This document shows positions 4,695-26,721 of a DNA stretch of 64,000 bases, in pieces. Position 1 is the stretch's first letter. Every line of letters begins with the position of its first letter. The notes below the pieces were generated by a model, which searched no databases, was not told where the DNA came from, and saw nothing but the letters and a program-made list of their open reading frames with translations. The position numbers and the translations under genes were made by a program. Origin of the DNA: an uncultured Polycyclovorans sp. (lineage in GTDB: Bacteria > Pseudomonadota > Gammaproteobacteria > Nevskiales > Nevskiaceae); contig CAKZHZ010000019.1 in NCBI GenBank assembly GCA_936928855.1, forward strand, positions 76,310 to 140,309, in the 5' to 3' direction.

Positions 4695-4758
4695 TGCCCC
4701 CTCCCACAGCTTCGTTCGGGATCATAGGGCCATCAGGCATGGCCTGACGTGCGCCGGG

Positions 4759-5526
4759 TCACGTCGCCAGCTCAATCCAGACCGGGGCGTGATCCGACGG
4801 GCGCTCGAGTTTGCGCGGAGCAGTGTCCACCGCCCATTGGCGCAAGCGTTGACGCAGCGGGGCGCTGACCAGCAGATGGTCGATACGCAGCCCCATGTCG
4901 CGGCGGAAGGCCGCCTGTCGGTAGTCCCACCAGGTAAAGCGGCCCTCACGGTTTGGCGCAGCCTCAAAGCTGTCGCTCAGGCCGAGATCGCAAATGGCGG
5001 TAAGCGCGGCGCGCTCCGCGTCGGAGCAGAGGATGGCACCTTCCCAGACCTGCGGGTCATGCGTGTCCTCCGGCGTCGGCGCGATGTTGAAGTCGCCCAT
5101 GACCAGCAGGTCGTCATGTTGCGTCAGTTCGGTCTGCAGCCAGTGGCGGAACGCGTCGAGAAACCGCAGCTTGTACGCATACTTTTCGCCGCCGACCGCC
5201 TGCCCGTTGACAACATAGGCGTTCACCACGCGGATGCCGCCGATGCGGGCGGCAATGACGCGGCGCTGTTCATCTTCGAACGCCGGAATGCCGCGCTGGA
5301 CATCCTCCAGCGGCTGCCGCGCCAGCAGGGCCACGCCGTTATAGGTTTTCTGACCATGGCTGACGCTCTGATAGCCGACCTCGGCGAGGGCCTCGGTCGG
5401 AAACTGGTGATCCTCGCACTTGAGTTCCTGCAGGCCGACCACATCGGGCTTGGCTGTGGCGAGCCAGTCGAGCAGGTGGGGCAGGCGGACCCGCAGGCTG
5501 TTGACGTTCCAGGTGGCGATCTTCAT
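4759..5526 (-). CDS. xthA: exodeoxyribonuclease III
   Basis: MKIATWNVNSLRVRL...VMGDFNIAP...DHAPVWIEL, the canonical ExoIII/EEP nuclease sequence. Confidence 0.9.
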   Translation of the reverse strand: MKIATWNVNSLRVRLPHLLDWLATAKPDVVGLQELKCEDHQFPTEALAEVGYQSVSHGQKTYNGVALLARQPLEDVQRGIPAFEDEQRRVIAARIGGIRVVNAYVVNGQAVGGEKYAYKLRFLDAFRHWLQTELTQHDDLLVMGDFNIAPTPEDTHDPQVWEGAILCSDAERAALTAICDLGLSDSFEAAPNREGRFTWWDYRQAAFRRDMGLRIDHLLVSAPLRQRLRQWAVDTAPRKLERPSDHAPVWIELAT

Positions 5527-5603
5527 TGGAGTCCGGTGGCGGGAGCGCAGGGCGCAATCAGGTGGGCATTCTATTCTTGCCGAAGCCTGCCGCCGGCATC
5601 AAA

Positions 5604-5642
5604 GAAAAAGGCCGCCGGTGTTGCCGCCGGCGGCCTCTTTTC
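5604..5642. terminator. bidirectional rho-independent terminator
   Basis: aaagaaaaaGGCCGCCGGtgttgCCGCCGGCGGCCtcttttcg: a 9-bp GC stem flanked by an A-tract and a T-tract. It lies downstream of the minus-strand lipoprotein gene. Confidence 0.6.
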
Positions 5643-5656
5643 GATCCCCCTTGGAA

Positions 5657-7675: not shown

Positions 7676-7798
7676 TGAGGCTCTCGGTTTTTCTGGGGTC
7701 AGCCGGCTCGTGACCGGGCCATGCACCCTAGTCTGTGGCGGTGACACCGATGTGAAACGCGGGGCGGCGACCCCGCGTGTCGACCGAGTCTTACAGCC

Positions 7799-9844
7799 TC
7801 ACGCGCTGCTGGCGGACGAGGCGATCAGGCCATCGTGGCGCAGCAGCGCGTCCAGCGTTGGTGGGCGTCCGCGGAATGCCGTGAACAGCTCCAGTGCCGG
7901 GGCACTGCCACCGCGCGACAGCAGCGCATCCCGGAAGCGATGGCCGGTGTCGACGGCGAAACCGGATTCCTCGAATGCCGCAAAAGCATCGGCCGACAAC
8001 ACCTCGGCCCACTTGTAGCTGTAGTAACCGGCTGCGTAGCCGCCAGCGAAGATGTGGCTGAAGCTCCAGGGCATGCGATTGAACGCGGGAGGCTGCATCA
8101 GGGCCACTTCCGCGCGCACCGCCTCGAGTTGCTGCAGCAGGGCGTCGGTATCGTCGGGTGGCGCATCACGGTGCAGGCGCAGGTCGAACAGGGCGAATTC
8201 GATCTGCCGCAGTGTGGCCATGCCACTCTGCCAGCTGCGGGAGGCCTGGAGTTTGTCGATCAGGGTGTGCGGCAGGGCGTCGCCGGTCTGCCAGTGGCGG
8301 GCGAAGCGTTGCAGTGTGGGGGCGTGGTAGCACCAGTTCTCCATGAACTGGCTGGGGAGTTCCACGGCATCCCACTCCACGCCGTGAATGCCGGAGACGC
8401 TGGCCTCCTCCACCTGGGTCAGGAGGTGGTGCAGGCCGTGGCCGAACTCGTGAAACAGCGTCAGCACCTCGTCGTGGGTCAGCAGTGCCGGCTGGCCGGG
8501 GGCGGGCGGCGTGAAGTTGCCGACCAGATACGCGACCGGCAGCTGCAGCTGCCCGTCGATGCGCTGCCGTGTCAGGCACTCGTCCATCCAGGCGCCGCCG
8601 CGTTTGTGCGCCCGGGCATACGGGTCCAGATAGAACAGTCCGATCGGCTCGCCTGAAAGCGTTGACAGCGAGTAGACCGTCACGTCCTCGTGCCAGGTGG
8701 CGATGCCCTCCACCGCCGTGATGCGAACCCCATAGAGGGATTCGACCTGATCGAACATGCCCTGGATCACCTGCGGCGCCGGGAAGTAGGGCTTCAGGGC
8801 TTCGTCAGACAGTCCCAGCGTGGCATCGCGATAGCGTTCGCTGTAGTAGGCAACATCCCAGGGCTCCAGCCGATCCAGGCCATCCTGCGCATGCGCGTAA
8901 TCGCGCAAGGCCTCCAGCTCGGTTTCCGCACGTGCGCGTGCGCGTCGGGCGAGATCGGTCAGAAACTGCTCCACGGCCTCAGCGGAGTCCGCCATCTTGG
9001 TGGCCAGCGACAGCGCAGCATAGTGGGGGAAGCCGAGCAGCTCGGCTTCCTCACGACGCAGGCGGAGGATCTCGAGCATCGGGGGGCCGTTGTCGAACTG
9101 TCCGGCCTGCGGACCCTGGTCGGACGCACGGGTCGCGTAGGCGGTGTACAGCGACCGGCGTAACTCGCGGTCGTGGGCGTGGCTGATCACCGCGTCGAAG
9201 GAGGGGAAATCGAGGGTGATCCAGGCCCCGTCCAGATCCCGGTCTCGGGCCTTGGCCTCCGCGCTGGCGCGGGCGCCATCACTCATCCCGGACAGTCGGT
9301 TCGGGTCGGGAACGTGCAGGCCGTAGGCCTGGATCGCGTCCATCAGGTTCGACTCGAACTGCGACTGCAAGGTCGACAGGCGCAGCGAAATCGCCTTGTA
9401 GCGGGCCTTGTCCTGTTCGGGCAGGCCGATGCCCGACAGCCGGAAGTCACGCAGGGCATCTTCGACCACCTTGCGGCGTTCGGTGCTGAGCTGCGGGAAG
9501 TCAGGGCGCGCCGCGAGGGCCTGGTAGGCGCGGAACAGCGGCTCCGACTGCGACAACTCCAGGCTGTACTCGGTGATCTTCGGGAGGGCAGTGTTGTAGG
9601 CCTCGCGCCAGGCCGGGGTGCTGCATACCCCGAACAGGTGGGACAAGGGTCCCCAGGCCTGCCCCAGCGCGTTGTTCATCCGTTCCAGTGGTACCACCAG
9701 GGAATCCCAATCCGGCGACGTGAGACCCTCCAGTGTCTGCAACTGCTGGCGGTTCCCGGTCAGGACGGCGTCGAGTCGGGCCAGGACGCCGTCGGGCGTC
9801 AGGTTGGGAAAATCGGGGAGCGGCAGGGCGGCGCTGGGCATCAC
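7799..9844 (-). CDS. prlC: oligopeptidase A (M3 family)
   Basis: 681 aa, HEFGHGLHH zinc motif, and overall OpdA-like sequence. Confidence 0.9.
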   Translation of the reverse strand: MMPSAALPLPDFPNLTPDGVLARLDAVLTGNRQQLQTLEGLTSPDWDSLVVPLERMNNALGQAWGPLSHLFGVCSTPAWREAYNTALPKITEYSLELSQSEPLFRAYQALAARPDFPQLSTERRKVVEDALRDFRLSGIGLPEQDKARYKAISLRLSTLQSQFESNLMDAIQAYGLHVPDPNRLSGMSDGARASAEAKARDRDLDGAWITLDFPSFDAVISHAHDRELRRSLYTAYATRASDQGPQAGQFDNGPPMLEILRLRREEAELLGFPHYAALSLATKMADSAEAVEQFLTDLARRARARAETELEALRDYAHAQDGLDRLEPWDVAYYSERYRDATLGLSDEALKPYFPAPQVIQGMFDQVESLYGVRITAVEGIATWHEDVTVYSLSTLSGEPIGLFYLDPYARAHKRGGAWMDECLTRQRIDGQLQLPVAYLVGNFTPPAPGQPALLTHDEVLTLFHEFGHGLHHLLTQVEEASVSGIHGVEWDAVELPSQFMENWCYHAPTLQRFARHWQTGDALPHTLIDKLQASRSWQSGMATLRQIEFALFDLRLHRDAPPDDTDALLQQLEAVRAEVALMQPPAFNRMPWSFSHIFAGGYAAGYYSYKWAEVLSADAFAAFEESGFAVDTGHRFRDALLSRGGSAPALELFTAFRGRPPTLDALLRHDGLIASSASSA

Positions 9845-9902: not shown

Positions 9903-10838
9903 TTACAGCAGTCCCCGTGCCTCCAGCGCCATGGCGGCAAAGACGAACCCCGCGAGGCCCGCCAGCAGCCACAGGGCGCCACCAATCCGGGTGCGACGTC
10001 CCAGATCGGCTTCCGACATCGTGGACAGCAGGAAGGGGCGCCGATCGGTGGGCTGGCACAGGACATGGAGATCCGGCATCACCGCCTGCTCAACGTGTCG
10101 TTGCCGAACGGCCTGGAGTGCCGCCTCGCGAGCCGCCTCCCACTCGCCGAGATCGATCTCGCCATCGCCGTTGGTATCGAAGCGCTGCAGCAACTGGCGG
10201 CGGTCGCGCTTCCAATCGGCCAGCAGCTCGCGCACATCGTCGCCTTCGCTGAAACTGTGCTGTCCGTGCTGGGTGCGGAACAGACCCACCGTGTAGAGGG
10301 GATCGCCGACTTTGACCAGCCGCTCGGTGTATCGGTATCCCCCGAAGGAAATCCATGGCGAGCGTTCCGGGATCTGCGCCGGGACCCGGCCGTGCCCCTG
10401 CCACCGGCGACGCAGGCTGGGATGGACCTTGGCTCCGTGGGGGTCGACCACGCAGTCGCCGCTGGGGTCCGTGAGCAGAAACAACTCGTCCGAGGTGGCG
10501 CGCGCAATGGTTTTCCATTCGCTGCGACTGCGACCGTTGACCATGCGTCGGTCGCGGCGTTCCACCTGATAGTCCCACCAGACGCAGCGCGCACGCGTGA
10601 GGGGGGAATAGATGGGAGGGCCTGGCAACAGTCCGGCATGACCTTCGAGTTCGACGTAGCCCTGCGCGGCACTGGCGATGCGGGAGGTGGGCAGGTCCTG
10701 CATCAGGCGCGCGTGCCGCAACTGGCGCAATCCCCATGCGGTGCCGCCGACGGCGAGCAGCAACGCCAGCCCGACCGCCAGCACGAAGCCCTCGATCGAG
10801 GTTGTCGCCAGCGAGGCGAACAGGGCCTGCGCGGCCAC
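9903..10838 (-). CDS. two-TM membrane protein with a canonical EF-hand (possibly GIDE-like), LemA partner
   Basis: N- and C-terminal hydrophobic helices, and a central soluble region with a perfect EF-hand loop (DTNGDGEIDLGEWE). A 3-nt gap separates it from the lemA stop. Confidence 0.6.
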   Translation of the reverse strand: MAAQALFASLATTSIEGFVLAVGLALLLAVGGTAWGLRQLRHARLMQDLPTSRIASAAQGYVELEGHAGLLPGPPIYSPLTRARCVWWDYQVERRDRRMVNGRSRSEWKTIARATSDELFLLTDPSGDCVVDPHGAKVHPSLRRRWQGHGRVPAQIPERSPWISFGGYRYTERLVKVGDPLYTVGLFRTQHGQHSFSEGDDVRELLADWKRDRRQLLQRFDTNGDGEIDLGEWEAAREAALQAVRQRHVEQAVMPDLHVLCQPTDRRPFLLSTMSEADLGRRTRIGGALWLLAGLAGFVFAAMALEARGLL

Positions 10839-10841
10839 CGG

Positions 10842-11414
10842 TCAGTTGCCGAACAGGGCCTTGAAGTTGGGGTCCTGGAGTTCCTCTGCGGTGAACTCCA
10901 GCAAGGTGGCGGGTGCGAACCCCAGCAGGCGGGCCACCACGACATCGGGGAACTGCTCGATCCGAACGTTGTTGAGGTTGACGCTCTCGTTGTAGAACTC
11001 GCGGCGATCGGAGATGGCGTTCTCAAGGGCCGTCACCCGTGACAACAGGGTCTGGATCGACTGGTTGGCCTTGAGTTCCGGATAGGCTTCCACGGTGGCC
11101 TGAATGCTGCCGAGTGCGGCCCGCATCATGCCTTCGCTTTTGCCCACGCCGACGACGTCGCCATTTTCCCGTGCCACCTGGGCGCCGCTACGGGCGGCCA
11201 TGACACGTTCCAGTGCGTCACGTTCGAACTGCATGTACTGCTTGCAGGTTTCCACCAGCTTGGGCAGCTCCTCGTGACGCTGCCGCAGCAGGACATCGAT
11301 GTTGCTCCAGCTCTTGGAAACGTTGTGCTTGAGGTTGACCAGGCCGTTGTAGATCACGATGCCGTACAGCAGTGCGATCCCGACGATCCCGAGGAGGATG
11401 TAGGTCACCATCCG
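10842..11414 (-). CDS. lemA: LemA family protein
   Basis: Start at MVTYILLGIVGIALLYG (TM helix), followed by a LemA-like sequence (NLKHNVSKSWSNIDVLLRQRHEELPKLVETCKQYMQFERDALERV...). The upstream in-frame extension is rejected. Confidence 0.8.
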   Translation of the reverse strand, partial: RMVTYILLGIVGIALLYGIVIYNGLVNLKHNVSKSWSNIDVLLRQRHEELPKLVETCKQYMQFERDALERVMAARSGAQVARENGDVVGVGKSEGMMRAALGSIQATVEAYPELKANQSIQTLLSRVTALENAISDRREFYNESVNLNNVRIEQFPDVVVARLLGFAPATLLEFTAEELQDPNFKALFGN

Positions 11415-15999: not shown

Positions 16000-16497
16000 T
16001 CAGGGGGTCAACCGGAGGCGACCGGTGAGGGCGCCGTCCGCATCCAGCAGGCCGTGGCGCTGCAGAAACCCTCGCGCGTCGTCACTATCCTGTTCGAACC
16101 ACGCGCGGGCACTGCCGAGGATGAAGTGGTAACCCCAGGCGTCCATGTCGGCGAGGAGGCGCTCACGCGAGTAGCCGGGTATGCGGTCGGCCAGCAGTGC
16201 CTGCAGGTAGCACACGGCATTCTCTTCGGTGTCGGTTCCGCAGGCGTCGGTGTCCACGATGGCACGCCGTTCTGGATCCATGCAGCGCCAGTGTCCCAGC
16301 TCGTGCAGCAGCGAGTGCACCGGGGTGTCCCGGCGGACGTAGAGACGCGCGCCGATGATCCCCGCTTCTGGCTCGCCCCAATAGCTCCCGGGGATGGCCT
16401 GACCCTCCTCCACCCACGTCAACTGCATGCCCTGATGCGCCACGAAAGCGGCAAGCGCCTCGGCGTTCAAGGCGGCGCAGGGCAGTACAGGGGGCAT
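16000..16497 (-). CDS. hypothetical protein with HExxH motif
   Basis: 165 aa containing SLLHELGHWRCMD. Convergent with the repeat lipoprotein across a 25-nt gap. Confidence 0.5.
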   Translation of the reverse strand: MPPVLPCAALNAEALAAFVAHQGMQLTWVEEGQAIPGSYWGEPEAGIIGARLYVRRDTPVHSLLHELGHWRCMDPERRAIVDTDACGTDTEENAVCYLQALLADRIPGYSRERLLADMDAWGYHFILGSARAWFEQDSDDARGFLQRHGLLDADGALTGRLRLTP

Positions 16498-16584
16498 GAT
16501 TTCCTACTGTGTGGCGGCGGAGGCTGCACTACGCTGATCAAAACCTGACGCTTGATTCAGATCTACAACAGGGGGAGAACAGCC

Positions 16585-19500
16585 ATGCGCCATTTTACGG
16601 GAGGGCGTCGCTGGGGTGTTGTGTTGGCGGCGACAGTCACCTTGGCGGCATGCGGTACCAGTGATCCGGTGGCAGGTGATCTCGGCAATCGGGATCCTGC
16701 TCCGGGCCAGGGCAACATCTTCATGAGCGCGATGCCGCCCGGGGCCAATGGCAACGCGGCAGGCGGCGTCGGGGCGCCGGCCGGGATACCGCCGTCGGCC
16801 ACCGTGTACCCCGACCATTACAACGATCAATTGGCGCTGTATGCGAACCTGGCCCATGCCCGGACGCCGCTGCAGCGCGGCAATTGCACGCCACCGGCGT
16901 CACTGGCCGCGCATGAACCCGCCTCGGATCAGGCCTGCAATTACTTCAAGAATGCGCCGATCGAGTTGCCGGATGCGCAAGCGGTCAGCGCACGGACGCT
17001 GAGTGCGCCGAACGGCGGCAGTGTCACCATCCGACGCGATGGATGGGGTGTGCCCTACGTGGATGGCAGCGATCGCGCGGCGGCCCAGTATGGGCTTGGT
17101 TATGCGGCTGCGGAGGATCGCCTCTGGCTGTTCGATGTGCTGCGGTACGCGGGACGAGGGCGCGCGTCGGAATATCTCGGCCCCTCGCAGACAACCTATG
17201 ACCTTGATCTGGAGTTTGGTTCGGCTTCCGCCTACAGCGAAGCGGAGATCGCCACTGTGCTGAGCCGCGCAGTGGAGAAGGTGGGGGAGCCCTACGGCTC
17301 GCAGTTTCTCAACGACACCGAAATGTTCGTCGCCGGCATGAACGCCTTTGTCGACTCGCTGACCGGTACCAACGTTAGCCGCATTCCGCCCGAGTACCTG
17401 ACACTGGGGCTGGCCGTGGGTGCCGAGTTGCCCAAGTTTCCGCCGGCCCCCTTTACGGTGAACGATATCGTTGCCAATGCCATTCTGATCCAGTCTGCGC
17501 TGGGCCTGGGCGGTGGCGGCGAGGCCAGCAATGTACGACTGCTGCAGGCGTTGGACGCCGGTATCGGTGGTGCGACGCGCACCTTGCCGGTGGCAGCCTG
17601 CGAAACCTGGCGGGACCTTCGCCATGCCAACGCCACCGACAGCTATCACACCGCCACCGGCACCTTCGACACGCAGTCGGGGTTCTTCAGTGAGGCGTGC
17701 CCCTTGGCGCTGGCCGAAGGGGCGGTGATCTGGGATGCCGGCAGCTACCGGGGGCTGGCTTTGGTGGGGACCGAAAGTGCCGGGCTGTTGGTGCCCGATA
17801 TCCCCGGGATTCTCAACGATCTGCAGCGCATCCTCGGCGGACTGCTGCCAGGCAATGCCCTGCAAATGGCACAGACCGCACGCATTCCCCTGCGCAGGAC
17901 GGCGGAGCAGACACTGTTGGCGCTCAACGATGCGCCGGGAACCGCCCTTGATGCGCTGCTGGCGTCGCTGGGCATGCCGAGCTCCACGTCGAACTGGATT
18001 GCGGTGAATGCGGACCAGACCCAGTCCGGCCACCCGATCCTGGTGGGCGGGCCGCAGACCGGCTACTTCAATCCGCAGCTGCTGTGGGAGGCGGCGGTGA
18101 TCTCTCGTGGCGGCACAGCGATGGATCTGGCCGCGCGAGGGATCTCCACGGTCAATCTGCCCTATATCGTGATCGGACACGGCCTCGACTTCGCCTGGGT
18201 GCCGACGTCTGCGGGCTCCGATTTCACCGATACCCGCGTGTCGAAGATGTGCAATCTGGATGGCTCGCCACCGTCACGCGACGATGGCGACGGTGATGGG
18301 TTTCCGGACGCGGATGGCTACCTTTTCAAAGGCGAGTGCAAGCGCTTCTACACCCGCGTCGATACCTGGACCGCGACGCCGACGGTCGCCAGTATCGCCC
18401 TCGGTGGCGGCCCGACGCCGGAAACGGTCAGCCGCTATGTGATCCGTACGCATTACGGTCCGGTGTTCGCCACCGCGACGGTCAGTGGCGAGCCTGTGGC
18501 GATCTCCACCCAGCGATCCACATTCCTGGCCGATGTCGACACCGCCATTCCGTTCGGCATCCTCACCGCGCAGGGAGTGGACATGGACCACACCCGATTC
18601 AAAAAGCTGTTCAACAGCATGACGGCGACCTTCAACTGGCTGTACGTCGACGAGCAGGATGTGGCCTACATCCAGTCCGGACTGTACCCGGTACGTCATC
18701 CCGGGCACATGCCGGAGCTGCCGGTCTGGGGTGATGGGCGATTCGAGTGGCAGAACGACCAGCAACTGCCAGCGTCGTTCTTCACCGATTTTGGCGGGGA
18801 TGGCAATGCCGGCGCTGACAGCTGGCCGTCGCGCAACCAGCCGGTAGCCCAGGACGCGCTGGGGTATTTCGAGTGGCCGGGGTATCTGCCCCTGACGGAT
18901 CATGTGCAGGACACCAATCCGCCCACGGGGTTTCTCGCCAACTGGAACAACTCCGGCGCGTTCGGATGGACGGCCCCTGACGGGGACGGTTCCTATGGGC
19001 CCACGCATCGGGTGCTGAACCTGTCGAAACGCCTCGAGGCCTTTCGCGATACCGGGCGCAAGCATGATCTCGCCACCATGATCGAGGTGGCGGGTGATGC
19101 GGCCTATACCGATACCCGAGGGCTCGATGTCCTGCCCCTGATGCTGCGGGTACTGGCGTCGGAGCCGATGACGTCCGAACAGGAGGCTGTTGCCAACCTG
19201 ATGCAGGCATGGATGGACGATGGATCCGGTCACTGGATCGACGATACCCCGGGGCTGGGCGCGATGCGGCGGGACCGGGATAGGGACGGAGCCTACGATC
19301 ACCGCAGCGCTGTCGTGCTGATGGATGCCTGGTACCAGCGCATGCTGCCGCGCGTAACGGTGCAGCTCGATCAGTTGGTGGCCAACGGCGGCACGGCGCT
19401 GCAGGGTCGGTTCGATGCGCCGGGGGCGGTGGGCTCAGCGTTTCAGAGTGGCTGGTTCCAGCACATGAAGCGTATGTTCGGCATGGCGCTCGGGGATGCG

Positions 19501-19779
19501 GTCCCGCCGTATCGACAGTTGCGCTGTGCGGGCGCGGATGGTCTGCCGGCCTGTCGTGCCGCAGTGACGGAGGCCCTGGACCTTGCGCTCACGGATCTTG
19601 GCGGCCTGGCGATGATGACGCAGTGGGATGGCAGCAGCCTGTACGGCGGTGACACAGTGGAGGCCCACGACGCGGTGGTGCACACCAACTTCGGATTCCT
19701 GCCCATCGCGTCGATTCACTGGATCAACCGCCCGACGTTTCATCAAGCGGCCGAGATTCAGCAGTCTCGCGACCGCTGA
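16585..19779 (+). CDS. penicillin amidase / acyl-homoserine-lactone acylase family (Ntn hydrolase) lipoprotein
   Basis: Lipobox LAACG. An SSTSNWIAVNAD...GGPQTGYFNPQLLWE junction matches the S-N nucleophile start of the beta subunit. About 1064 aa, with Asp/Gly-rich inserts (DDGDGDGFPDADG). Confidence 0.8.
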   Translation: MRHFTGGRRWGVVLAATVTLAACGTSDPVAGDLGNRDPAPGQGNIFMSAMPPGANGNAAGGVGAPAGIPPSATVYPDHYNDQLALYANLAHARTPLQRGNCTPPASLAAHEPASDQACNYFKNAPIELPDAQAVSARTLSAPNGGSVTIRRDGWGVPYVDGSDRAAAQYGLGYAAAEDRLWLFDVLRYAGRGRASEYLGPSQTTYDLDLEFGSASAYSEAEIATVLSRAVEKVGEPYGSQFLNDTEMFVAGMNAFVDSLTGTNVSRIPPEYLTLGLAVGAELPKFPPAPFTVNDIVANAILIQSALGLGGGGEASNVRLLQALDAGIGGATRTLPVAACETWRDLRHANATDSYHTATGTFDTQSGFFSEACPLALAEGAVIWDAGSYRGLALVGTESAGLLVPDIPGILNDLQRILGGLLPGNALQMAQTARIPLRRTAEQTLLALNDAPGTALDALLASLGMPSSTSNWIAVNADQTQSGHPILVGGPQTGYFNPQLLWEAAVISRGGTAMDLAARGISTVNLPYIVIGHGLDFAWVPTSAGSDFTDTRVSKMCNLDGSPPSRDDGDGDGFPDADGYLFKGECKRFYTRVDTWTATPTVASIALGGGPTPETVSRYVIRTHYGPVFATATVSGEPVAISTQRSTFLADVDTAIPFGILTAQGVDMDHTRFKKLFNSMTATFNWLYVDEQDVAYIQSGLYPVRHPGHMPELPVWGDGRFEWQNDQQLPASFFTDFGGDGNAGADSWPSRNQPVAQDALGYFEWPGYLPLTDHVQDTNPPTGFLANWNNSGAFGWTAPDGDGSYGPTHRVLNLSKRLEAFRDTGRKHDLATMIEVAGDAAYTDTRGLDVLPLMLRVLASEPMTSEQEAVANLMQAWMDDGSGHWIDDTPGLGAMRRDRDRDGAYDHRSAVVLMDAWYQRMLPRVTVQLDQLVANGGTALQGRFDAPGAVGSAFQSGWFQHMKRMFGMALGDAVPPYRQLRCAGADGLPACRAAVTEALDLALTDLGGLAMMTQWDGSSLYGGDTVEAHDAVVHTNFGFLPIASIHWINRPTFHQAAEIQQSRDR

Positions 19780-19836
19780 GGAAAAAGGCCCGACCCCCGA
19801 GGGGGCCGGGCCTGTCTCGTTGGGCGGAAGCCCGGC

Positions 19837-21093
19837 TCAGTGGTCGTGAGCTTCTTCAGCCACGCCCAGCCAGGCAATGCCGACCGGCGCGAAGTCGAGA
19901 TCGACGTGATCGATCACCTCTACCGCTTCGAGATCGACCACGGCGATGGCGCGGCCTGCGGGGTCGGTGACATAGGCATGATCTGCCGAGGCGCTGGTGG
20001 CGATGCGCGCAGCGGGCTGGTCGCCGGTATAGATCTCCGCGCTTCCCTTGGCTTCAAGTCCGGTCGCAGCCGCTTCGAATACGTGCAGCGTCCCGGTGTT
20101 GTCGAGGATCAGCAGATGCTCGCCGTGCGTATCAAAGGTGTGCTGGCGGCGCGTGACGGTGGCGCCCGCTTTCCAGTCGAACGCCGTGGCGGTCGCGGTA
20201 TCGGGATCGACGATGTACAGCGCGTCGTTGTCGGCGCTGCCGGCAAAGGCGACGAAGTAGGGGACCTCGTGGTGGCCGGCCACCTGTGAGATGCGTACCG
20301 GGACCACGACCTTCTGATCGGTGAACGTGCTGCCCTCCTGACGGATGAGGAGGACGCCGTCGCTGCAACCAAAGGCAGTGTGATCCTCGTTGGACGCACC
20401 GCCGTGGAGGTTCAGGCACGGTGTGGCGAAGCGGCCTTCATCGTGAAAGTGATCGCCATGCAGTTCGTACAGCTTCACTGCGCTGCGGGGTGCACTGAGG
20501 GCGGCTTCCTCTGCGGAGTAGTCCGACACGAGCACGAACCCGTCACGGGGCTCGGCGATGCCGTGCACCGCAACGGGCAGCGATGCGGCAGCCACGACGG
20601 TGTTGGTTTCCAGGCTCGCGTCGGTGAGCAGCTCGAACTTTGCCGCTTCGGTGGCATCGCCGTCGTAGAACATTGCGGCTTGATCTTCATGGCGTTGGAA
20701 ATGGGCCGGCTTGGTGCCGAACCGCGTCAGTGCGAGCAGGCTCGGGTCATCGGCATGAAGGTGGTCGTCGTGAAGCCAGACCCCGCCATCGACAAAGTTG
20801 ACCTGTCCCGCGCCAGCCTGAGGAACCACTGCGTAACGCATGCCCGGCGATGCATAGACGGCCGTCGGCGGGTTGCTGAGATCGATCGCGGTGCTGTTGC
20901 GCGCTTCCAGATCGAACACGATGAGTTGATTGGCGCCATCGTCGCGGCCAAAGGCCAGGCGGCCTGACGACTCGGCATGGTCGTGATCGTCGTGGTCACG
21001 CAAGGCATCGTCGTCATTGCAGCCGATCAGCGTCAGCGAAGCGGCGAGCAAGACCAGCTTGATGGGGTGACTGAGAAAGCGTGTTGCATCCAT
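19837..21093 (-). CDS. His-rich periplasmic lipoprotein, YVTN-type beta-propeller-like (putative metal-binding)
   Basis: Lipobox LIGC followed directly by DDDALRDHDDHDHAE. Further HxxH clusters (HDDHLHADD, HGDHFHDEG, C-terminal EEAHDH) and YVTD-like blade motifs. Immediately downstream of the TonB receptor. Confidence 0.65.
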   Translation of the reverse strand: MDATRFLSHPIKLVLLAASLTLIGCNDDDALRDHDDHDHAESSGRLAFGRDDGANQLIVFDLEARNSTAIDLSNPPTAVYASPGMRYAVVPQAGAGQVNFVDGGVWLHDDHLHADDPSLLALTRFGTKPAHFQRHEDQAAMFYDGDATEAAKFELLTDASLETNTVVAAASLPVAVHGIAEPRDGFVLVSDYSAEEAALSAPRSAVKLYELHGDHFHDEGRFATPCLNLHGGASNEDHTAFGCSDGVLLIRQEGSTFTDQKVVVPVRISQVAGHHEVPYFVAFAGSADNDALYIVDPDTATATAFDWKAGATVTRRQHTFDTHGEHLLILDNTGTLHVFEAAATGLEAKGSAEIYTGDQPAARIATSASADHAYVTDPAGRAIAVVDLEAVEVIDHVDLDFAPVGIAWLGVAEEAHDH

Positions 21094-21203
21094 GGGGTTC
21101 TCCTGGCGGTCAGAAACGGACAGCCCGACAGCCACAGGCCTTAGGCGAATCGATCCCCGTGAGGGCGGGCGATATCGGCATGTGCCTGCGGCACACGGGC
21201 CTG

Positions 21204-23420
21204 TTACGGGGAAGTGAAAAAGTCGAACCGAAGACCCGCGAACACGGATCGGCCCGGTTGCGGCGAAATGTCCTTGAGGAACGAAGTGCTCAGGCGCTGT
21301 TTTTCGTCGAGCAAGTTGCGCCCCTGAAGGTAGAGCGTGGCCTGCAAGCCGCCGCGTTCGAGGGTGTACCCGAGATCGGCATTCACCAGGTCGTGCCCCG
21401 GGGTGTTGGTCTCGAGCGGGGCCAGCCGATCCTGCTCCATCACCCGGATGTAGCTGATCGCCGCCGTGATCGGCCCGTAGGCTGCATCGGCCCCGATGCC
21501 AAGCCGCACCGGGGTCATGCGAGGCAGCGGAATGCCACCGTCGCGCAGCTCGCCGCGCACGATATCGCCGAAGCCGTTCAGGCTCAGTCGGAGGGGGCCG
21601 TCCTGCAGCAGGTGGAACTCCGATGACAGCTCGGCACCGTAAAAGTCGGCATTCTGCTGCACGAAATCCAGCAACAGCAGTTCGCCGTCAGGCGAGTGCT
21701 GCCCGCGCTCATCGACACGGTCGGCTTCGCCGTCTGAAACGGCAGTGCCGCTGCCGTCGGCGTTGAGGCCCTGGTCAACTTCCTGCGGGAAGATGTAGTC
21801 GTCGATGCGGTTGTAGAACACCGACGCCTCCCAGGTCCAGCGGCCATGGTCCAGGCCGATACTGAGATCGAGGTTGTTGGCGGTTTCGGGATCCAGCTGC
21901 AGGTTGCCGCGTTCGAAGGCCTGGGTAGCGAGGTGGGGGCCGAAGGCGAACAGTTCCTCGGCAGCCGGTGCCCGTTGTGCACGTTGCAGATTGATGCGCA
22001 GATGAAGGTGGTCCGCCAACTTGATGTGGGTGCCGGCAGACAGACTCACTGGTGTGAAGTCCTGGCGATTGTCGTTTGCGACATCCGCGTCGTGCCGAAC
22101 ACGGTCGATACGGGCGCCGAGCTCGAGGTGGTGATTTCCCAGCGCCAGGCCCTCCACCAGAAAGATGCCGAGTCCGCGGGTGACGACCGGAGGTACAAAG
22201 GCTTCCGCGCCCTCTGCAACGAAGTCGCGGTCACTATGGTGTATGCCCGCCACGCCGACCCAGCCGGCCAAGGGGCGATGCGCAAGTTCCACTCGGGACT
22301 CGCTTTCGTTCACATCGAAGCGGGTTCCGACAGTCCCATCGGGCTCGACTTCAAGGTGGGTATAGTCATTGAAGCCGGCGCGAACTTCGAGGCGTTCGAA
22401 TCCGGGGAGTGGGTCGAGTAGCAGGCCGCGCAGGTCGGTCCGCGTCTGATCGAGGTCGATGCGAATGTCCCCGTCCTCATGTCCATGGTCATCTCCACCC
22501 GGGGTGCCGCCATCATCCTCGTGGGCATGGGAATGCCCGGCGATGCCGTAGTTGGAGGTGAAGCGCCGAACCGTAACACCGGCCATGCCGCGATCCTGCA
22601 CCCAGGCGGCGGATGCACCGTGGCTCTCGGTGCGGAGGCGGCTGTTTTCAAGGACACCGTAACGTTCGGGCTCGTCCGCGTGCGCATGGTCGTGGTCGTG
22701 GTCGTGCGCATCTTCTGCGCCTTCCCGCGTGGCATAGCCCGGGATCTCGAAATCGCCAGCATCACGGTCGCTGAAATCCACGCCGAACTGCAAGGCTCCC
22801 AGGCCCCATCCCAGCCTGAGCGCATGGTTGCGCTCGTCGCCGTTGCTGCCGTACGAGGTATTGCCGCGCAGCCGGAGGCCGGGCGTGACGTGATCCGGGA
22901 GGCGGTCATCGACGACGTTGACGATGCCGGCGGAAGCACCACCGCCGTAGATCAAGGTGGCCGGGCCCTTGATGACTTCGATTTGATCCGCGTTGAGAGG
23001 GTCGATCGACACTGCGTGATCGGCACTGATCGACGAGGCATCCATGGAGGCAATGCCGTTCTCGAGCATCTGCACGCGTGGCCCACCCTGGCCACGGATC
23101 ACCGGGCGCCCGACGCCGGGGCCGAAACTGGCGCTTGCGATCCCCGGCCGAAGGTTGAGTACGTCGCCGAGTGTGCCGCGCCGGTTGCGTTCCAGGGTTT
23201 CACCCGACAGGACGTCGACACGCTGCACCAGCTCGTCGGCGGTGCGCTCGAAGGCGCCCGAGCGCACGACGATGGTGTCCAGAGGGGTGGACGCCGTGGG
23301 CGGCGTATCGGCTCTGACTGCTCCGGGGAAGCTGGCGGCCAGCAGTGCCAGCAAGGATGCGCGCCTGAGGCCAGGGACGTAGGCGCGGCGTGGCGCCGTG
23401 AAGCGGATAGTGGGTTTCAT
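21204..23420 (-). CDS. TonB-dependent receptor with His-rich loops (ZnuD-like)
   Basis: Plug and barrel sequence with a TonB-receptor-type C-terminus. His-rich stretches EDAHDHDHDHAHADE and HSHAHEDDGGTPGGDDHGHEDGD. Start at MKPTIRF. Confidence 0.85.
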   Translation of the reverse strand: MKPTIRFTAPRRAYVPGLRRASLLALLAASFPGAVRADTPPTASTPLDTIVVRSGAFERTADELVQRVDVLSGETLERNRRGTLGDVLNLRPGIASASFGPGVGRPVIRGQGGPRVQMLENGIASMDASSISADHAVSIDPLNADQIEVIKGPATLIYGGGASAGIVNVVDDRLPDHVTPGLRLRGNTSYGSNGDERNHALRLGWGLGALQFGVDFSDRDAGDFEIPGYATREGAEDAHDHDHDHAHADEPERYGVLENSRLRTESHGASAAWVQDRGMAGVTVRRFTSNYGIAGHSHAHEDDGGTPGGDDHGHEDGDIRIDLDQTRTDLRGLLLDPLPGFERLEVRAGFNDYTHLEVEPDGTVGTRFDVNESESRVELAHRPLAGWVGVAGIHHSDRDFVAEGAEAFVPPVVTRGLGIFLVEGLALGNHHLELGARIDRVRHDADVANDNRQDFTPVSLSAGTHIKLADHLHLRINLQRAQRAPAAEELFAFGPHLATQAFERGNLQLDPETANNLDLSIGLDHGRWTWEASVFYNRIDDYIFPQEVDQGLNADGSGTAVSDGEADRVDERGQHSPDGELLLLDFVQQNADFYGAELSSEFHLLQDGPLRLSLNGFGDIVRGELRDGGIPLPRMTPVRLGIGADAAYGPITAAISYIRVMEQDRLAPLETNTPGHDLVNADLGYTLERGGLQATLYLQGRNLLDEKQRLSTSFLKDISPQPGRSVFAGLRFDFFTSP

Positions 23421-23482
23421 GGAAGCGGTCCTGCACACACATCAGGGTGTGCCGAGGCACACCGGAAGTAGTCGACGACGGT

Positions 23483-23785
23483 TCAGACGTCGGTGTGTGG
23501 AGGGCCGCGAATCTGTTGCAGCCGTGCGTGTGTCCCGGGCGGGGCGAAGGAGCCGAAGGAGTGGGGCGCTTCGGTCTGCCCTGCCCAGGTCGCCGTGGAG
23601 GCGGTGCAGGGAAGTGCCCCCCCGTCGGCGCCCGAGGCGTGCAGGCAGTACGTGCAGGTCTGTTCAAAGGTCAGCGCGGGATGCGCGTCGTGCTCTGCAT
23701 GCGCGTGCGCGTGCGCCACGGTCAGCCACTGGCCGGCCAACAGGGCCAGCACCAGGACCAGTATTCGGCTCACGGGCGTACGCAT
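23483..23785 (-). CDS. small secreted His/Cys protein (possibly DUF2946-like)
   Basis: 100 aa with a signal peptide, then HAHAHAEHDAHP and a CTYC..C Cys motif. Sits 62 nt upstream of the TonB receptor. Confidence 0.5.
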   Translation of the reverse strand: MRTPVSRILVLVLALLAGQWLTVAHAHAHAEHDAHPALTFEQTCTYCLHASGADGGALPCTASTATWAGQTEAPHSFGSFAPPGTHARLQQIRGPPHTDV

Positions 23786-23805
23786 AACGTAATCTTATAA
23801 CATCT
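23783..23805. promoter_or_regulatory. AT-rich motif overlapping the small-protein start codon (candidate Zur/Fur-type operator)
   Basis: cataacgtaatcttataacatc is a conspicuous AT-rich stretch in a high-GC context. It contains a TATAACA half-site and overlaps the RBS and ATG of the metal-uptake operon. It does not match the Zur or Fur consensus well. Confidence 0.25.
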
Positions 23806-23865
23806 CGTCAGCGGCGCACGCACGTGAACCGTGCCGGGTTGACGCCTGCGGCGTCGGCGTCGGCG

Positions 23866-24225
23866 CTACGGGGTCAGAATTCGGACCTGGTCGGCATCGA
23901 TCTCGGGATCGCGCAGGCGGCGGGTGTCGATCTCGCCCACGATCTCGATTTCGGTTTGCTCGCCAATCTGCGCATTGGGAAAGTCGTCGTCATCAATCTC
24001 GACATCGATCTCACCACTCCCATCGGTAAAGCGATAGGTGTCCTCATCAATCTGGCGGATGAGGCGGCCACGCAAGGTGACCTGCTGGTCATCCTTGCCC
24101 TGACTCAGGACGAGACCGACGGTGTTCAGAACGGGGCGTTGCCCGGGGCCTTCGTACTGGGCGTGAGCCAGCGGCAGGGCCAGCAGGGCGGCGGCGCCGA
24201 GGGACAGGGTTGCATTACGGATCAT
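23866..24225 (-). CDS. BOF (YgiW/YdeI, DUF388) periplasmic OB-fold protein
   Basis: Signal peptide MIRNATLSLGAAALLALPLAHA. A ~100-aa mature region with VTLRGRLIRQIDEDTYRFTDGSGEIDVEIDDDDFP, typical of BOF proteins. Confidence 0.75.
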   Translation of the reverse strand: MIRNATLSLGAAALLALPLAHAQYEGPGQRPVLNTVGLVLSQGKDDQQVTLRGRLIRQIDEDTYRFTDGSGEIDVEIDDDDFPNAQIGEQTEIEIVGEIDTRRLRDPEIDADQVRILTP

Positions 24226-24321
24226 GAGAGACTCCAGTGGAAAGTGGGCCGGGTCCCCGGGAAATGGATTCGCCGTGGTACCTCGGTGCGTCAGCATCCT
24301 GGGGGCGCTGCCCTCAGCGTT

Positions 24322-24353
24322 TCGTGAACAATGCGTTCACGAGATATTCACGA
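24322..24353. promoter_or_regulatory. candidate OmpR-family response-regulator box (inverted plus direct TTCACGA repeats, 11-bp period)
   Basis: TCGTGAACaatgcGTTCACGAgataTTCACGA lies in the divergent BOF/PepSY promoter region, 22-53 nt upstream of the PepSY start. Confidence 0.35.
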
Positions 24354-24374
24354 TGCTGGCGTCATAACGCGCTG

Positions 24375-24707
24375 ATGAACCGTTCCCGTGGTGCCCTTTC
24401 ACTGCTACTTGCCTTCCTGGCGCTGACGCTGTCATCGCCTGGCTGGACTGATGACGATGATCGTGACCGTTTGCGAGACGCCGTCCGTCGTGGGGAAATC
24501 CTGCCGCTGTCGACCATCCTTGAACACATCAACCGGGACTACCAGGGTGAGGTGATCGAAGTCGAGCTGGATGAAGACGATGATCAGTGGGTGTATGAGA
24601 TCGACCTGCTGGCGCCTACCGGCGACCGCATCGAGTTCGAGTTCGATGCCCGCTCGGGGCGGCTGCTGGAGGTCGAGGGCCGCAATCTAGAGCGTGTTCG
24701 CCGGTGA
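24375..24707 (+). CDS. PepSY-domain periplasmic protein
   Basis: Signal peptide, then LPLSTILEHINRDYQGEVIEVELDEDDDQWVYEIDLL, a PepSY-like sequence. Its stop overlaps the GTG start of the response regulator. Confidence 0.65.
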   Translation: MNRSRGALSLLLAFLALTLSSPGWTDDDDRDRLRDAVRRGEILPLSTILEHINRDYQGEVIEVELDEDDDQWVYEIDLLAPTGDRIEFEFDARSGRLLEVEGRNLERVRR

Positions 24708-25369
24708 GGGTGTTGATCGCCGAGGATGATGACGATCTGGCGCGCGGTCTGGCGCAGGTGCTCGCGCGCGCCGATTTCGTCGTCGACCGGAGCGGCAGCG
24801 GTGATCAGGTCGACTTCCTGGTTCGCACCGAACACTACGATGCGGTGGTGCTGGATCTGGGCCTGCCCGTACGGGACGGCCTGTCGCTGCTTCGGGAGTG
24901 GCGGGAGGCAGCGATCGCCGTGCCGGTCCTGATTCTCACAGCGCGCGGGCGTTGGCCGGACAAGGCGGCGGGCTTCTCCGCTGGCGCGGATGATTTCGTT
25001 TCCAAGCCCTTTGAGCCGATGGAGGTGGTGCTGCGGCTGCAGGCCCTGATTCGTCGCAGTCGTGGCGAGGCGCGAGTGGTACTGCAGTTCGGGGAGGTGG
25101 TGGTGGACTGTGGACGAGGGGAGGTCAGCGAGCGTGCGATGCCGGTGCCGCTCACCGCGCAGGAATACAAGTTGTTGGTGTATCTCGCCCTGGCGGCCGA
25201 CCGCGTGGTCAGCCGGACGGAGTTGAGCGAGCACGTTTATGAGCGTGACCGGGATCCCGACTCGAATGTGCTGGATGTCCTGATCGGACGCATTCGCCGA
25301 AAACTCGACACGCCGCTGATCGAAACGGTGCGGGGCCGTGGCTTTCGCGTCCGGCGGCAGCCCGCATGA
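24704..25369 (+). CDS. OmpR-family response regulator
   Basis: Receiver domain (MRVLIAEDDDDLARGL...DAVVLDLGLP...) and a winged-helix output domain (LTAQEYKLLVYL...GRGFRV). Confidence 0.9.
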   Translation: MRVLIAEDDDDLARGLAQVLARADFVVDRSGSGDQVDFLVRTEHYDAVVLDLGLPVRDGLSLLREWREAAIAVPVLILTARGRWPDKAAGFSAGADDFVSKPFEPMEVVLRLQALIRRSRGEARVVLQFGEVVVDCGRGEVSERAMPVPLTAQEYKLLVYLALAADRVVSRTELSEHVYERDRDPDSNVLDVLIGRIRRKLDTPLIETVRGRGFRVRRQPA

Positions 25370-26721
25370 GGGTCTCGATCAGCACCCGTCTGCTGATCGT
25401 CACGACCCTGACCGTGATGCTCGCCCTGCCGGCGGCCGGGGCCCTGTTGTCGGATGCTTTTCGGCGGGCGGTCGGCGTGGCCCACGATCAACGGTTGCAG
25501 GCGCTGGTCGAGACGCTTGCCGCCCGACTCGAAGCGCCTGCGGGTGGTGGGCTGCAACTCCGCGGTACGGTCACCGAGGCGCGCTACGCCCAAGTCTATT
25601 CGGGCTGGTACTGGCAGGTGGTGCAGCGGGATCGCGTGGTCGCCACTTCACGATCGCTGTGGGATGCCAGTCTCGATGTCCCGCCGCTGTCCAGTCCGCT
25701 GGTCCAGGGCGCGATGACCTTGCGCGGGCCCATGGGCGAGGCCTTGCGGGGCTATTACCTGCGACTGCAGCTGGCCGGTAGCCCGGCACCGGTCGAACTC
25801 GTGGTGACCGAGCCTCATGCAGCACTGGATGCGGAAGTGACCGCCTTCAACCGGCTGCTGTGGTGGGGATTGGGCACGCTGGGCGGGCTGCTCCTGCTGT
25901 TGTTCGCGGTGCAGGTGCGCTGGGGATTGCGCCCCTTGCGGCGGATGCGTGAGGATCTGGAGGCGGTTCGCGATGGGGCCAAGCCGCAACTGGACACCGC
26001 GCTGCCCCCGGATCTCGCGGGACTGGCCGAGACGCTCAACGATGTGCTGGCGCATCAAGTGGCGGTGGTGACTCGGGGCCGGACCGTCGCCGGGAACCTC
26101 GCGCATGCGCTCAAGCAACCGTTGGCCACGCTGCGGCTGGCGGCGGCGGAAGCGGCGCCTGATCGCGCTGTGCTTCGGCGTGCACTCTCCGAGATCGACG
26201 CCACTGTCGACCATCATCTGGCGCGCGCCGCTGCGGGTGGAGCCGCCGGAGGGCGCTATCGCAGGGTGGACCTTCGGCAGACGCTGATGCCCGTTGTGGA
26301 GGCCGTTCGTGCCCTTCACGGCGGGCGGGGGAAGGTGATCGATGCCGCGTTGCCAGACGATGTCGGCGTGTCGATGGAGGCGCAGGATCTGCAGGAGCTG
26401 GTCGGAAATCTGCTCGACAACGCTGGAAAGTGGGCCGCCTCGCGTGTACGGCTGTCGGCACGGGCCGACGAAGACCACATCGTTCTCTGGGTGGACGACG
26501 ACGGGCCGGGTCTGCGGCCCGATCAGCGCGACGGAGCCATGCAGCGGGGTGTTCGCTGGGACGAACGGCAACCCGGCAGTGGCCTGGGGTTGGCCATCGT
26601 GCAGGATCTGGTTGCGCTGTATGACTGGCGCCTGGCCCTGGAGGACAGCCCTTCGGGCGGGCTGCGTGCGCGGCTGACGGGGCCGGCGCCCCGCGTTCGC
26701 CGATCCGCCGGGGCCCGCTAA
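25366..26721 (+). CDS. sensor histidine kinase
   Basis: Two TM segments flanking a periplasmic domain. H-box LAHALKQPLATLRL, then N and G boxes (LLDNAGKW, DDDGPGL, GSGLGLAIV). ATGA overlap with the response regulator. Confidence 0.85.
   Translation: MRVSISTRLLIVTTLTVMLALPAAGALLSDAFRRAVGVAHDQRLQALVETLAARLEAPAGGGLQLRGTVTEARYAQVYSGWYWQVVQRDRVVATSRSLWDASLDVPPLSSPLVQGAMTLRGPMGEALRGYYLRLQLAGSPAPVELVVTEPHAALDAEVTAFNRLLWWGLGTLGGLLLLLFAVQVRWGLRPLRRMREDLEAVRDGAKPQLDTALPPDLAGLAETLNDVLAHQVAVVTRGRTVAGNLAHALKQPLATLRLAAAEAAPDRAVLRRALSEIDATVDHHLARAAAGGAAGGRYRRVDLRQTLMPVVEAVRALHGGRGKVIDAALPDDVGVSMEAQDLQELVGNLLDNAGKWAASRVRLSARADEDHIVLWVDDDGPGLRPDQRDGAMQRGVRWDERQPGSGLGLAIVQDLVALYDWRLALEDSPSGGLRARLTGPAPRVRRSAGAR

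Follow-up and report, generated by a model that had tools for sequence, protein, structure and literature searches.

The window analyzed here is a stretch of 64,000 nucleotides (nt) from an uncultured Polycyclovorans sp. of the family Nevskiaceae (Gammaproteobacteria, Nevskiales; assembly GCA_936928855.1, contig CAKZHZ010000019.1, positions 76,310 to 140,309), and the element in question is an array of four minus-strand open reading frames (ORFs) at 19837-24225 (Table 1). In the direction of transcription, the array encodes a BOF-family protein, a small His/Cys protein, a TonB-dependent receptor, and a His-rich lipoprotein. Independent gene calls on identical metagenome contigs agree with the ORF boundaries, and the gaps between the genes are, in the same order, exactly 80, 62, and 110 nt. 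An original prediction had treated all four genes as one module for transition metal acquisition. The gene positions and gaps on which it was built were reproduced exactly, as were the His-rich segments to which it drew attention (EDAHDHDHDHAHADE and HSHAHEDDGGTPGGDDHGHEDGD in the receptor, HAHAHAEHDAHP in the small protein, and CNDDDALRDHDDHDHAE after the lipobox) and the CxxC of the small protein (C44-T-Y-C47). The physical array is real, but the functional unit appears to consist of three genes, with BOF excluded. We conclude that positions 19786-23806 of the minus strand probably constitute a self-contained zinc acquisition operon of three genes, fronted by a Zur box and gated by a leader ORF. 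For the receptor and the lipoprotein, the function that fits best is the one originally proposed, zinc acquisition under metal limitation, in view of their ligands, the Zur-box-like site, and the zinc-related neighbors of their relatives.

A signal peptide and a TonB box (DTIVVRS) are present in the receptor, which is built of a plug and a 22-strand barrel; both of its Pfam domains score above their cutoffs (Plug PF07715, E = 6.8e-19; barrel PF00593, E = 1.8e-34). Its best NCBIfam model is that of ZnuD (NF038289, E = 6.3e-118). Among solved structures, it aligns with ZnuD over both plug and barrel (4rdr, E = 7.8e-61), and the next match, OprC, covers the plug only (E = 2.7e-11). The high-affinity zinc site of ZnuD is formed by Asp99, His100, Glu340, and His499 (PMC4557270); in the HMMER alignment these residues correspond to D134, H135, E357, and H496 of the receptor, all four of which are invariant in the 36 receptors (36/36) encoded directly upstream of an AztD-like gene. 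The His-rich segments of the receptor lie at the positions of ZnuD loops 2 and 3; HSHAHEDDGGTPGGDDHGHEDGD aligns with the loop-3 clusters, and such His/Asp runs are present in about half of the orthologues. On sequence comparison, the receptor is a distant member or a sister clade of the Neisseria-type ZnuD equivalog, and the earlier call of a ZnuD-type zinc receptor is borne out by the best match and by the four retained zinc ligands.

Other receptor classes were considered and rejected. Siderophore, B12, and haem receptors score at least 80 orders of magnitude weaker than ZnuD. A copper receptor of the OprC or CrtA type was rejected because the similarity to OprC is limited to the plug and because the operon partners differ. 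CrtA (BfrG), the copper receptor that follows CruR in Bordetella, is described as forming a cluster of its own, apart from every receptor of known structure, and PepSY_TM comes after it; the sole full-length solved relative of the window receptor is ZnuD, and the next gene is AztD-like, not PepSY_TM.

The lipoprotein carries a lipobox (L22-I-G-C25, of which Cys25 is invariant) that is followed by the His-rich tether DHDDHDH. It matches the NCBIfam AztD model (NF038015, E = 2.3e-27) and the solved AztD structures (PDB 6cmk, E = 2.5e-17; 6ck1, E = 3.2e-12). AztD binds zinc at two sites, site 1 consisting of His124, His167, and His218 and site 2 of His99, His102, Asp104, and the C-terminal His408 (PMC6689063). 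The site-1 equivalents in the lipoprotein are H131, H177, and H230; those of site 2 are the motif H108-D-D-H111-L-H113 and the C-terminal H418, and the AztD disulfide is represented by C226-C243. Of 84 loci, 83 to 84 retain the site-1 histidines, 83 the Cys pair, and 73 the site-2 histidines. When an AlphaFold2 model of the protein (predicted local distance difference test score [pLDDT], 90.8; predicted template modeling score [pTM], 0.86) was compared with the PDB by Foldseek, the top nine matches were all AztD (template modeling [TM] scores of 0.73 to 0.84, E down to 1e-22), and the next fold followed at 1e-10. Judged from this model, the protein is an eight-bladed β-propeller and a distant, lipid-anchored homologue of AztD. 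The propeller that the original prediction had recognized as YVTN-like is specifically of the AztD type, neither a generic YVTN propeller nor an orphan.

A lipobox is present in ∼75 of the 84 relatives, usually followed by a tether rich in Gly, Ser, His, and Asp. The residue at position +2 is Asn or Gly, which under the sorting rules of Escherichia coli would direct the lipoprotein to the outer membrane; it is probably tethered to the inner face of that membrane, with the cell surface and the inner membrane as alternative locations. Proteins that define the AztD family are encoded together with a binding protein of the AztC/ZnuA type, to which they deliver zinc, and in Gram-negative bacteria they are soluble in the periplasm; here, no ZnuA or ATP-binding cassette (ABC) transporter genes are found in the operon or the window, the partner gene encodes a TonB receptor, and the lipobox LIGC is present. 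The AztD-like clade is nonetheless linked to ZnuA-type proteins by natural fusions: two secreted proteins of 704 to 709 amino acids (aa), P0033 and P0034, have an AztD-like propeller inserted into ZnuA (PF01297) at its His-rich loop. In both (L089, 7001-9130; L090, 1130-3259), the order is ZnuA N-lobe, propeller, C-lobe, with DHDHDH linkers on both sides of the propeller. The clade includes at least 490 species-level loci. A receptor is encoded directly upstream in 36 of the 83 that were examined, and these receptor-AztD-like pairs span Nevskiales, Alcanivorax, Pseudoalteromonas, Rheinheimera, and others.

The small His/Cys protein is most likely of a different nature. A word-indexed homologue search recovered only the query itself, and an exhaustive phmmer search recovered 43 representatives. 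Of 38 relatives, 16 match DUF2946 (best E = 6.3e-5), the only family that is hit with any consistency. Read from its start, the window protein consists of an export signal ending in AHA (MRTPVSRILVLVLALLAGQWLTVAHA), C44xxC47, a variable spacer of 45 residues, R93-G-P-P96, and HTDV, after which comes the stop codon. In the CruR family, ∼45 residues (within 1 to 2) separate the Cys motif from the arrest motif (PMC9426467). The distance between CxxC and R[AG]PP is exactly 45 in the window and 43 to 46, with a mode of 45, in 34 relatives. Conservation in the alignment is confined to the GQWL..AHA..HPAL-bearing export signal, the CxxC(L)H motif, and IRGPP followed by 2 to 7 residues; the region in the middle varies in sequence and is constant in length. 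R93, P95, and P96 never vary, at least 90% of the relatives keep C44 and C47, and the histidines H25, H35, and mostly H49 are conserved in addition. These features suggest that the ORF most likely encodes a divergent arrest-peptide leader of the DUF2946/CruR-CutF type. It is most likely not the metal acquisition protein for which it was at first taken. We also considered a periplasmic metallochaperone and rejected it, since only the terminal motifs and the length are conserved.

CruR is the first gene of an operon that encodes a TonB transporter (PMC9426467). Likewise, in 12 loci that represent three orders, the leader described here comes first, ahead of a TonB-dependent transporter gene, and it precedes a ZnuD-like receptor in Nevskiales (the window, L001, L003, and L005) and in Alcanivorax (eight loci). 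In another locus, L094, a leader relative is followed by a gene with a Plug domain. In L013, a metagenome-assembled genome of Salinisphaerales, a leader of the same CruR-like type stands at the head of an operon (3359-8860) whose products are an OmpL-like porin, ZnuA, and a ZnuB-type ABC-3 permease; the leader subfamily is thus not restricted to TonB receptors. This operon is followed by a Zur box and then by a gene for a 679-aa AztD-like protein, and the same type of porin follows a leader in L093.

A Zur-box-like operator overlaps the presumed promoter of the leader. An extended -10 element, TG-T-TATAAG (23802-23794), lies inside the operator and ends 8 nt before the leader ATG. This operator is the sole site in the window with at most two mismatches to GTTATANTATAAC. 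The 1.18 Mb of relatives' loci contain 97 such matches, and 70 of these fall within the 4.4% of sequence located just upstream of operon heads. Zur-box-like sites are thus 56-fold enriched at these positions, and they are present in 48 of 83 loci. A 23-nt position weight matrix derived from the relatives' sites reproduces the classical consensus, GAAATGTTATAATATAACATTTC. With this matrix, the window site scores 26.3 bits, compared with 3.6 bits for the next independent site in the 64 kb and a maximum of 15.8 bits for shuffled sequence, and it scores 26.4 bits when the matrix is trained only on loci without a leader ORF. The search for a Zur box that had been proposed as a check, carried out on the window and the relatives' loci, thus singled out this promoter as unique in the window. 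No Shine-Dalgarno (SD) sequence is found before the leader ATG, and a -10-like hexamer lies 7 nt before the ATG in L001 and L005. Because the -10 element ends 8 nt from the ATG and no SD sequence precedes it, the leader transcript is likely leaderless or nearly so.

The neighborhoods of the relatives point the same way as the operator. Relatives of the cassette adjoin zur, two COG0523/CobW genes, a GTP cyclohydrolase gene, and a DUF3299-ABC system; further neighbors are CobW and/or Zur, which are found in many loci, FolE2, an ABC-2 system with CobW, and ZnuA with ZnuB. In ten loci of Acinetobacter spp., including A. haemolyticus (L020, L022, L025, L030, L033, L034, L036, L040, L041, and L051), an AztD-like lipoprotein gene stands alone, with no receptor upstream, directly behind a near-perfect Zur box, GTTATGTTATAAC. 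The AztD-like lipoprotein of this clinically relevant genus is probably Zur regulated.

The junction between leader and receptor may act as a translational switch. The intergenic region forms a local hairpin (23463-23446, GGUGUGC-CUCG-GCACACC), and a GC-rich hairpin follows the leader in all leader-bearing loci. The SD sequence of the receptor, AGGA (23432-23429), is sequestered in a predicted long-range helix in which the RGPP-HT codons, GCGGCCCUCCACACAC, pair with GUGUGUGCAGGACCGC, the segment that holds this SD sequence. The RNA fold of 23400-23520 has a minimum free energy of -42.7 kcal/mol (z = -3.3), and none of 200 shuffled sequences was as stable. Pairing of the SD sequence with the last 4 to 9 codons or the stop codon of the leader is predicted in nine of nine independent loci that differ in sequence, with pairing probabilities of 0.50 to 1.00, and in all nine the pairing is above the average obtained when the leader tail is recoded synonymously. 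For DUF2946 leaders, both a stem-loop masking the ribosome-binding site (RBS), in CutF, and control by Rho, in CruR, are established; in CruR, stalling blocks Rho (PMC9426467). By analogy, the predicted SD sequestration would be compatible with stalling of the CruR type that blocks Rho.

Elsewhere in the array, the 110-nt spacer between receptor and lipoprotein folds no more stably than shuffled sequences (z = -1.0), so we claim no regulatory role for it. A core, GTGTGCC...GGCACA, is common to both intergenic hairpins within the operon (23446-23463 and ∼21175-21195, both on the minus strand). An Rfam scan of 19500-24600 gave only two subthreshold chance matches. A strong intrinsic terminator (19813-19786) closes the operon after the lipoprotein gene and is shared with the penicillin amidase gene that converges on it; it is probably bidirectional. 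The product of the latter gene is a 1,075-aa penicillin amidase/PvdQ-like acylase (16552-19779, plus strand), and several Nevskiales-like genomes have both it and a small hypothetical protein (16009-16488, minus strand; 64% identical to a neighbor in L001) in synteny with the cassette.

The first gene of the array does not belong with the other three. Its product is confirmed as a BOF protein (Pfam PF04076, 73.7 bits against a cutoff of 25.8; NCBIfam stress_OB_fold NF033674, 97.9 bits against a cutoff of 35), and it is divergent from a PepSY-regulator-kinase operon. L088, from a relative with 70% identity to the window in the BOF protein, has UbiA-histidine kinase-response regulator-PepSY, a divergent BOF gene, and a convergent penicillin amidase gene, i.e., the synteny of the window without the trio. 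In L001 and L003, the leader, receptor, and lipoprotein genes lie beside the same penicillin amidase gene, without BOF or the two-component system, and a BOF gene was found near none of the lipoprotein relatives (0/84 loci). A direct repeat, GTGAAT-N5-GTGAAC, followed by GTTCACGAAACGCTGAG, is located in the BOF/PepSY promoter region (∼24324-24351) and is kept in L088 (5880-5925). GTTCACGAAACGCTGAG and the second GTGAAC half-site form a 7-bp inverted repeat, and the direct repeat, which has the geometry of OmpR-family sites, is a candidate binding site of the adjacent OmpR/PmrA-like response regulator. Since BOF stays with the PepSY-regulator-kinase genes in L088 and is absent where the trio occurs elsewhere, its place, as far as gene order and promoter sequence tell, is with the divergent unit, unrelated to the zinc cassette. 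It is very improbable that all four genes form one operon and that BOF and the small His/Cys protein handle metal in the periplasm as partners of the other two products. The shared strand, the short gaps, the lack of a canonical terminator after BOF, and the export and His/Cys-rich composition of the small protein would all fit this reading, but BOF goes with the two-component system rather than the trio, the conserved direct repeat marks the BOF/PepSY promoter, the Zur box and the -10 element lie between BOF and the small gene, and the small protein is conserved only in its terminal motifs and its length, as is typical of an arrest peptide and untypical of a binding protein that folds. BOF was accordingly rejected as an operon member on the 0/84 count and the synteny of L088. 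This case shows how adjacency on the same strand wrongly assigned one gene to a module.

TABLE 1 Features of the array and its surroundings in the 64-kb window
Feature	Position	Strand	Size	Remark
PepSY-regulator-kinase operon	24375-26721	+		Divergent from BOF
BOF/YgiW-family OB-fold gene	23866-24225	-	119 aa	Outside the cassette
Zur-box-like operator GAGATGTTATAAGATTACGTTAT	23784..23806	-		Overlaps extended -10, ends at leader ATG (23785)
Leader ORF (small His/Cys protein)	23483-23785	-	100 aa	Most likely a divergent arrest-peptide leader
RGPP codons (CGC GGC CCU CCA)	23498..23509	-		5' arm of predicted helix with the receptor SD region
Intergenic region	23421..23482	-	62 nt	Local hairpin and receptor SD
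ZnuD-family TonB-dependent receptor	21204-23420	-	738 aa	
AztD-family lipoprotein	19837-21093	-	418 aa	
Intrinsic terminator	19786-19813	-		12-bp stem, 10 GC pairs, then U-tract

From these elements, we infer how the cassette may work. Transcription would start from the extended -10 element within the Zur operator and would be repressed when cytoplasmic zinc is sufficient. In a ribosome that has reached RGPP, the CxxC/His cluster would lie 45 residues back, which roughly matches the ribosomal tunnel and the translocon taken together. While paused on RGPP, the ribosome would cover the segment that pairs with the receptor SD sequence, allowing the receptor to be translated, and, by analogy with CruR, the pause would keep Rho off the transcript. 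Because the downstream gene encodes an importer, the logic of CruR should apply, in which metal bound to the nascent CxxC/His motif releases the pause and turns the operon off; homology and RNA folding both suggest such a course. The receptor would capture Zn(II) through its His-rich loops and a buried Asp/His/Glu/His site, with ligands assigned by conservation. The lipoprotein would then accept zinc that the receptor lets go and pass it on to a ZnuA-type binding protein whose gene lies elsewhere, a transfer that we propose because AztD delivers zinc associatively to AztC and because ZnuA-AztD-like fusions exist.

A more specific version of this scheme is possible, if doubtful. Here, the leader would be a zinc-sensing nascent peptide that adds a second, fast layer of control over Zur, and the lipoprotein would be a dedicated acceptor that docks to the receptor. 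The Cys2/His cluster would emerge from the translocon at the very moment at which the ribosome is on RGPP, so that the leader could read periplasmic or cytoplasmic zinc and set both the translation of the importer and Rho-dependent read-through. As the docking acceptor, the lipoprotein would take zinc directly at the periplasmic face of the TonB receptor.

Several observations weigh against a leader-gated zinc operon. Scores fall below the family cutoffs for the receptor (395.3 bits, against 950 for NF038289), for the lipoprotein (95.7 bits, against 400 for NF038015), and for the leader, whose sole Pfam match is DUF2946 (PF11162, E = 0.0021, 19.2 bits, against a gathering cutoff of 23.7). The Zur-box-like site of the window has two core mismatches. 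A scan of 19600-24800 for consensus sigma-70 promoters found no match, because it requires a -35 element and none is present, and the promoter call thus rests on the extended -10 element inside the Zur box. Read-through from BOF is possible, no intrinsic terminator having been found between BOF and the leader. No ZnuA or ZnuBC is encoded in the window, where a tblastn search for ZnuA was negative. The SD pairing lies within the top 5% of synonymous recodings in only three to four of the nine loci, and some of this signal is inherent, since Pro codons by their nature complement SD sequences; for this prediction, the recoding control is moderately supportive and not decisive. No recognizable Zur box accompanies the leader in five of the 12 leader-bearing loci, although one of 35 bits is located elsewhere in L001; three Alcanivorax loci have theirs not upstream of the leader but between it and the receptor gene. 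Finally, both characterized DUF2946 leaders, CruR and CutF, respond to copper and not to zinc, and in L092 (Panacagrimonas) a DUF411 (CopG-like) gene (10338-10871) is located 60 nt after the AztD-like lipoprotein gene; it is the only copper-flavored neighbor seen in any cassette.

The displaced boxes are informative about the two layers of control. With scores of 27 to 32 bits, they are found at 4849-4871 in L010, 4656-4678 in L021, and 4596-4618 in L023. Because these three loci carry the box between leader and receptor, the leader and Zur controls are separable, and the placement implies, at the level of sequence, a second promoter or a Zur roadblock on transcripts initiated at the leader. 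The absence or relocation of the box in some leader-bearing loci also means that the arrangement of the two control layers in the window is not universal. In the five loci without a Zur box, the leader is the only visible metal-responsive element.

The copper precedents raise the question of which metal the operon handles. In a copper system modeled on the CruR-CrtA(BfrG)-PepSY_TM operons, the leader would be a true copper-responsive CruR, and the receptor and propeller would import or handle copper or a Cu chelate. Such a reading, which we regard as quite unlikely, is encouraged by the leader, since DUF2946 is its only family, both studied members sense copper through the Cys motif, and >40% of crtA operons start with cruR; a published survey, however, states that not all DUF2946 proteins are copper specific (zinc is not mentioned). 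His-rich sites also bind Cu(II), but the lipoprotein keeps the zinc sites of AztD and occurs fused to ZnuA. The weak similarity of the receptor to OprC is confined to the plug, whereas its resemblance to ZnuD extends over the whole barrel and includes all four zinc ligands, which makes it neither CrtA-like nor OprC-like. The DUF411 gene in L092 must likewise be set against the fact that no operon contains a gene for PepSY_TM, PCuAC, Sco, CopC, or YcnI and that the neighbors are genes of the Zur regulon, with Zur boxes enriched as described above.

Copper might instead act on the leader alone. The receptor and lipoprotein would then import zinc under the control of Zur, and a copper-sensing leader would veto the His-rich gate when competing copper is present. 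This combination leaves the structural genes assigned to zinc and accommodates the Zur box, follows both the copper precedent of CxxC-bearing DUF2946 leaders and the logic of CruR, in which metal turns an importer off, and agrees with the independent occurrence of Zur box and leader across loci, as expected of two separate inputs. We nevertheless consider it unlikely: in the five leader-bearing loci without a Zur box, a zinc response would need another source, and the additional leader histidines (H25, H35, and mostly H49) are compatible with a Zn site of the Cys2His2 type. Because every context of this leader subfamily is zinc uptake, we favor zinc over copper as the signal of the leader, giving zinc a little less than an even chance and copper, as veto or as substrate, a distinctly smaller though still considerable one, with the remainder left to another signal or to none. 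The original wording, zinc or possibly copper, can thus be kept in part: zinc is the best assignment for the receptor and the lipoprotein, and the copper caveat still applies to the leader signal.

All three families, ZnuD, AztD, and the DUF2946 leaders, are already known, and their combination appears to be new. The searchable literature, which is incomplete and hence no proof, contains no description of an AztD-TonB receptor pairing, of a propeller lipoprotein partner for ZnuD, or of a zinc uptake context for DUF2946 leaders, in keeping with the earlier remark that the lipoprotein-receptor pairing lies outside the well-described layouts. TonB receptors are not mentioned in the published analysis of AztD neighborhoods.

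To our knowledge, the path by which bacteria move free zinc from the TonB receptor to the ABC importer has yet to be established. With its gene immediately after that of a ZnuD-type receptor, an AztD-type chaperone on a lipid tether offers a concrete candidate for the hand-off. Metal-sensing arrest peptides of the DUF2946 family have, as far as we know, been a copper story so far. A leader subfamily that heads zinc uptake operons suggests either that nascent-chain sensing extends to zinc or that copper vetoes zinc import. A zinc-sensing leader and a docking acceptor, if confirmed, would be the first instance of zinc uptake controlled by an arrest peptide and the first hand-off partner to be defined for a TonB receptor of metal ions.

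Each part of the cassette can be set beside a known system. The receptor resembles ZnuD of Neisseria meningitidis (NMB0964; PDB 4RDR, 4RDT, and 4RVW) in its TonB-dependent plug and barrel, in all four buried zinc ligands, in a His/Asp-rich loop 3 at the homologous position (HSHAHEDD versus HSHEYDD), and in the Zur-type operator upstream. The two proteins are only ∼30% identical, however, and the window receptor has an extra His-rich segment in loop 2; it lies between a leader and an AztD-type lipoprotein, whereas ZnuD has neither a leader ORF nor a dedicated lipoprotein partner. The lipoprotein shares with AztD of Paracoccus denitrificans and Citrobacter koseri (PDB 6CK1, 6CMK, and 6N01) the propeller fold, the site-1 His triad, the disulfide, the site-2 HxDHx[D/H] motif with the C-terminal His, a terminal His-rich tract, and neighborhood links to Zur, CobW, and ZnuA. 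Identity is ∼22%, and unlike the Gram-negative AztD proteins, which are soluble in the periplasm and encoded with the aztABC transporter, the window protein is a lipoprotein encoded in a TonB receptor operon.

Beyond the cassette, the arrangement of a BOF/YgiW gene divergent from an operon for an OmpR-family regulator and a histidine kinase recalls ygiW-qseBC of E. coli and visP of Salmonella. In E. coli, ygiW sits with qseBC; the window differs in the small PepSY gene that precedes the regulator.

The closest parallel to the leader is CruR of Bordetella pertussis (Bp2923; cruR-crtA(bfrG)-bp2921), which is likewise the first ORF of a TonB transporter operon and has an export signal, a CxxC motif, 45 intervening residues, an R-x-P-P motif 3 to 4 residues from the stop codon, and a structured intergenic region. 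The window leader differs in having RGPP instead of RAPP, in its length (100 versus 145 aa), in the size of the intergenic region (62 versus 162 nt), in scoring below the Pfam cutoff, in its Zur box and extra conserved histidines, and in the genes downstream, which are ZnuD-like and AztD-like and not those for CrtA and PepSY_TM. CutF, encoded by cutFOG of Rhodobacter capsulatus, is also a DUF2946 leader, and its stalling melts a stem-loop that shields the downstream RBS, a geometry that is predicted here as well. CutF has CxxxC and PPP motifs, however, and turns on a copper-detoxifying oxidase when copper is present; the window leader fronts an importer, and its logic should therefore be the opposite, as with CruR.

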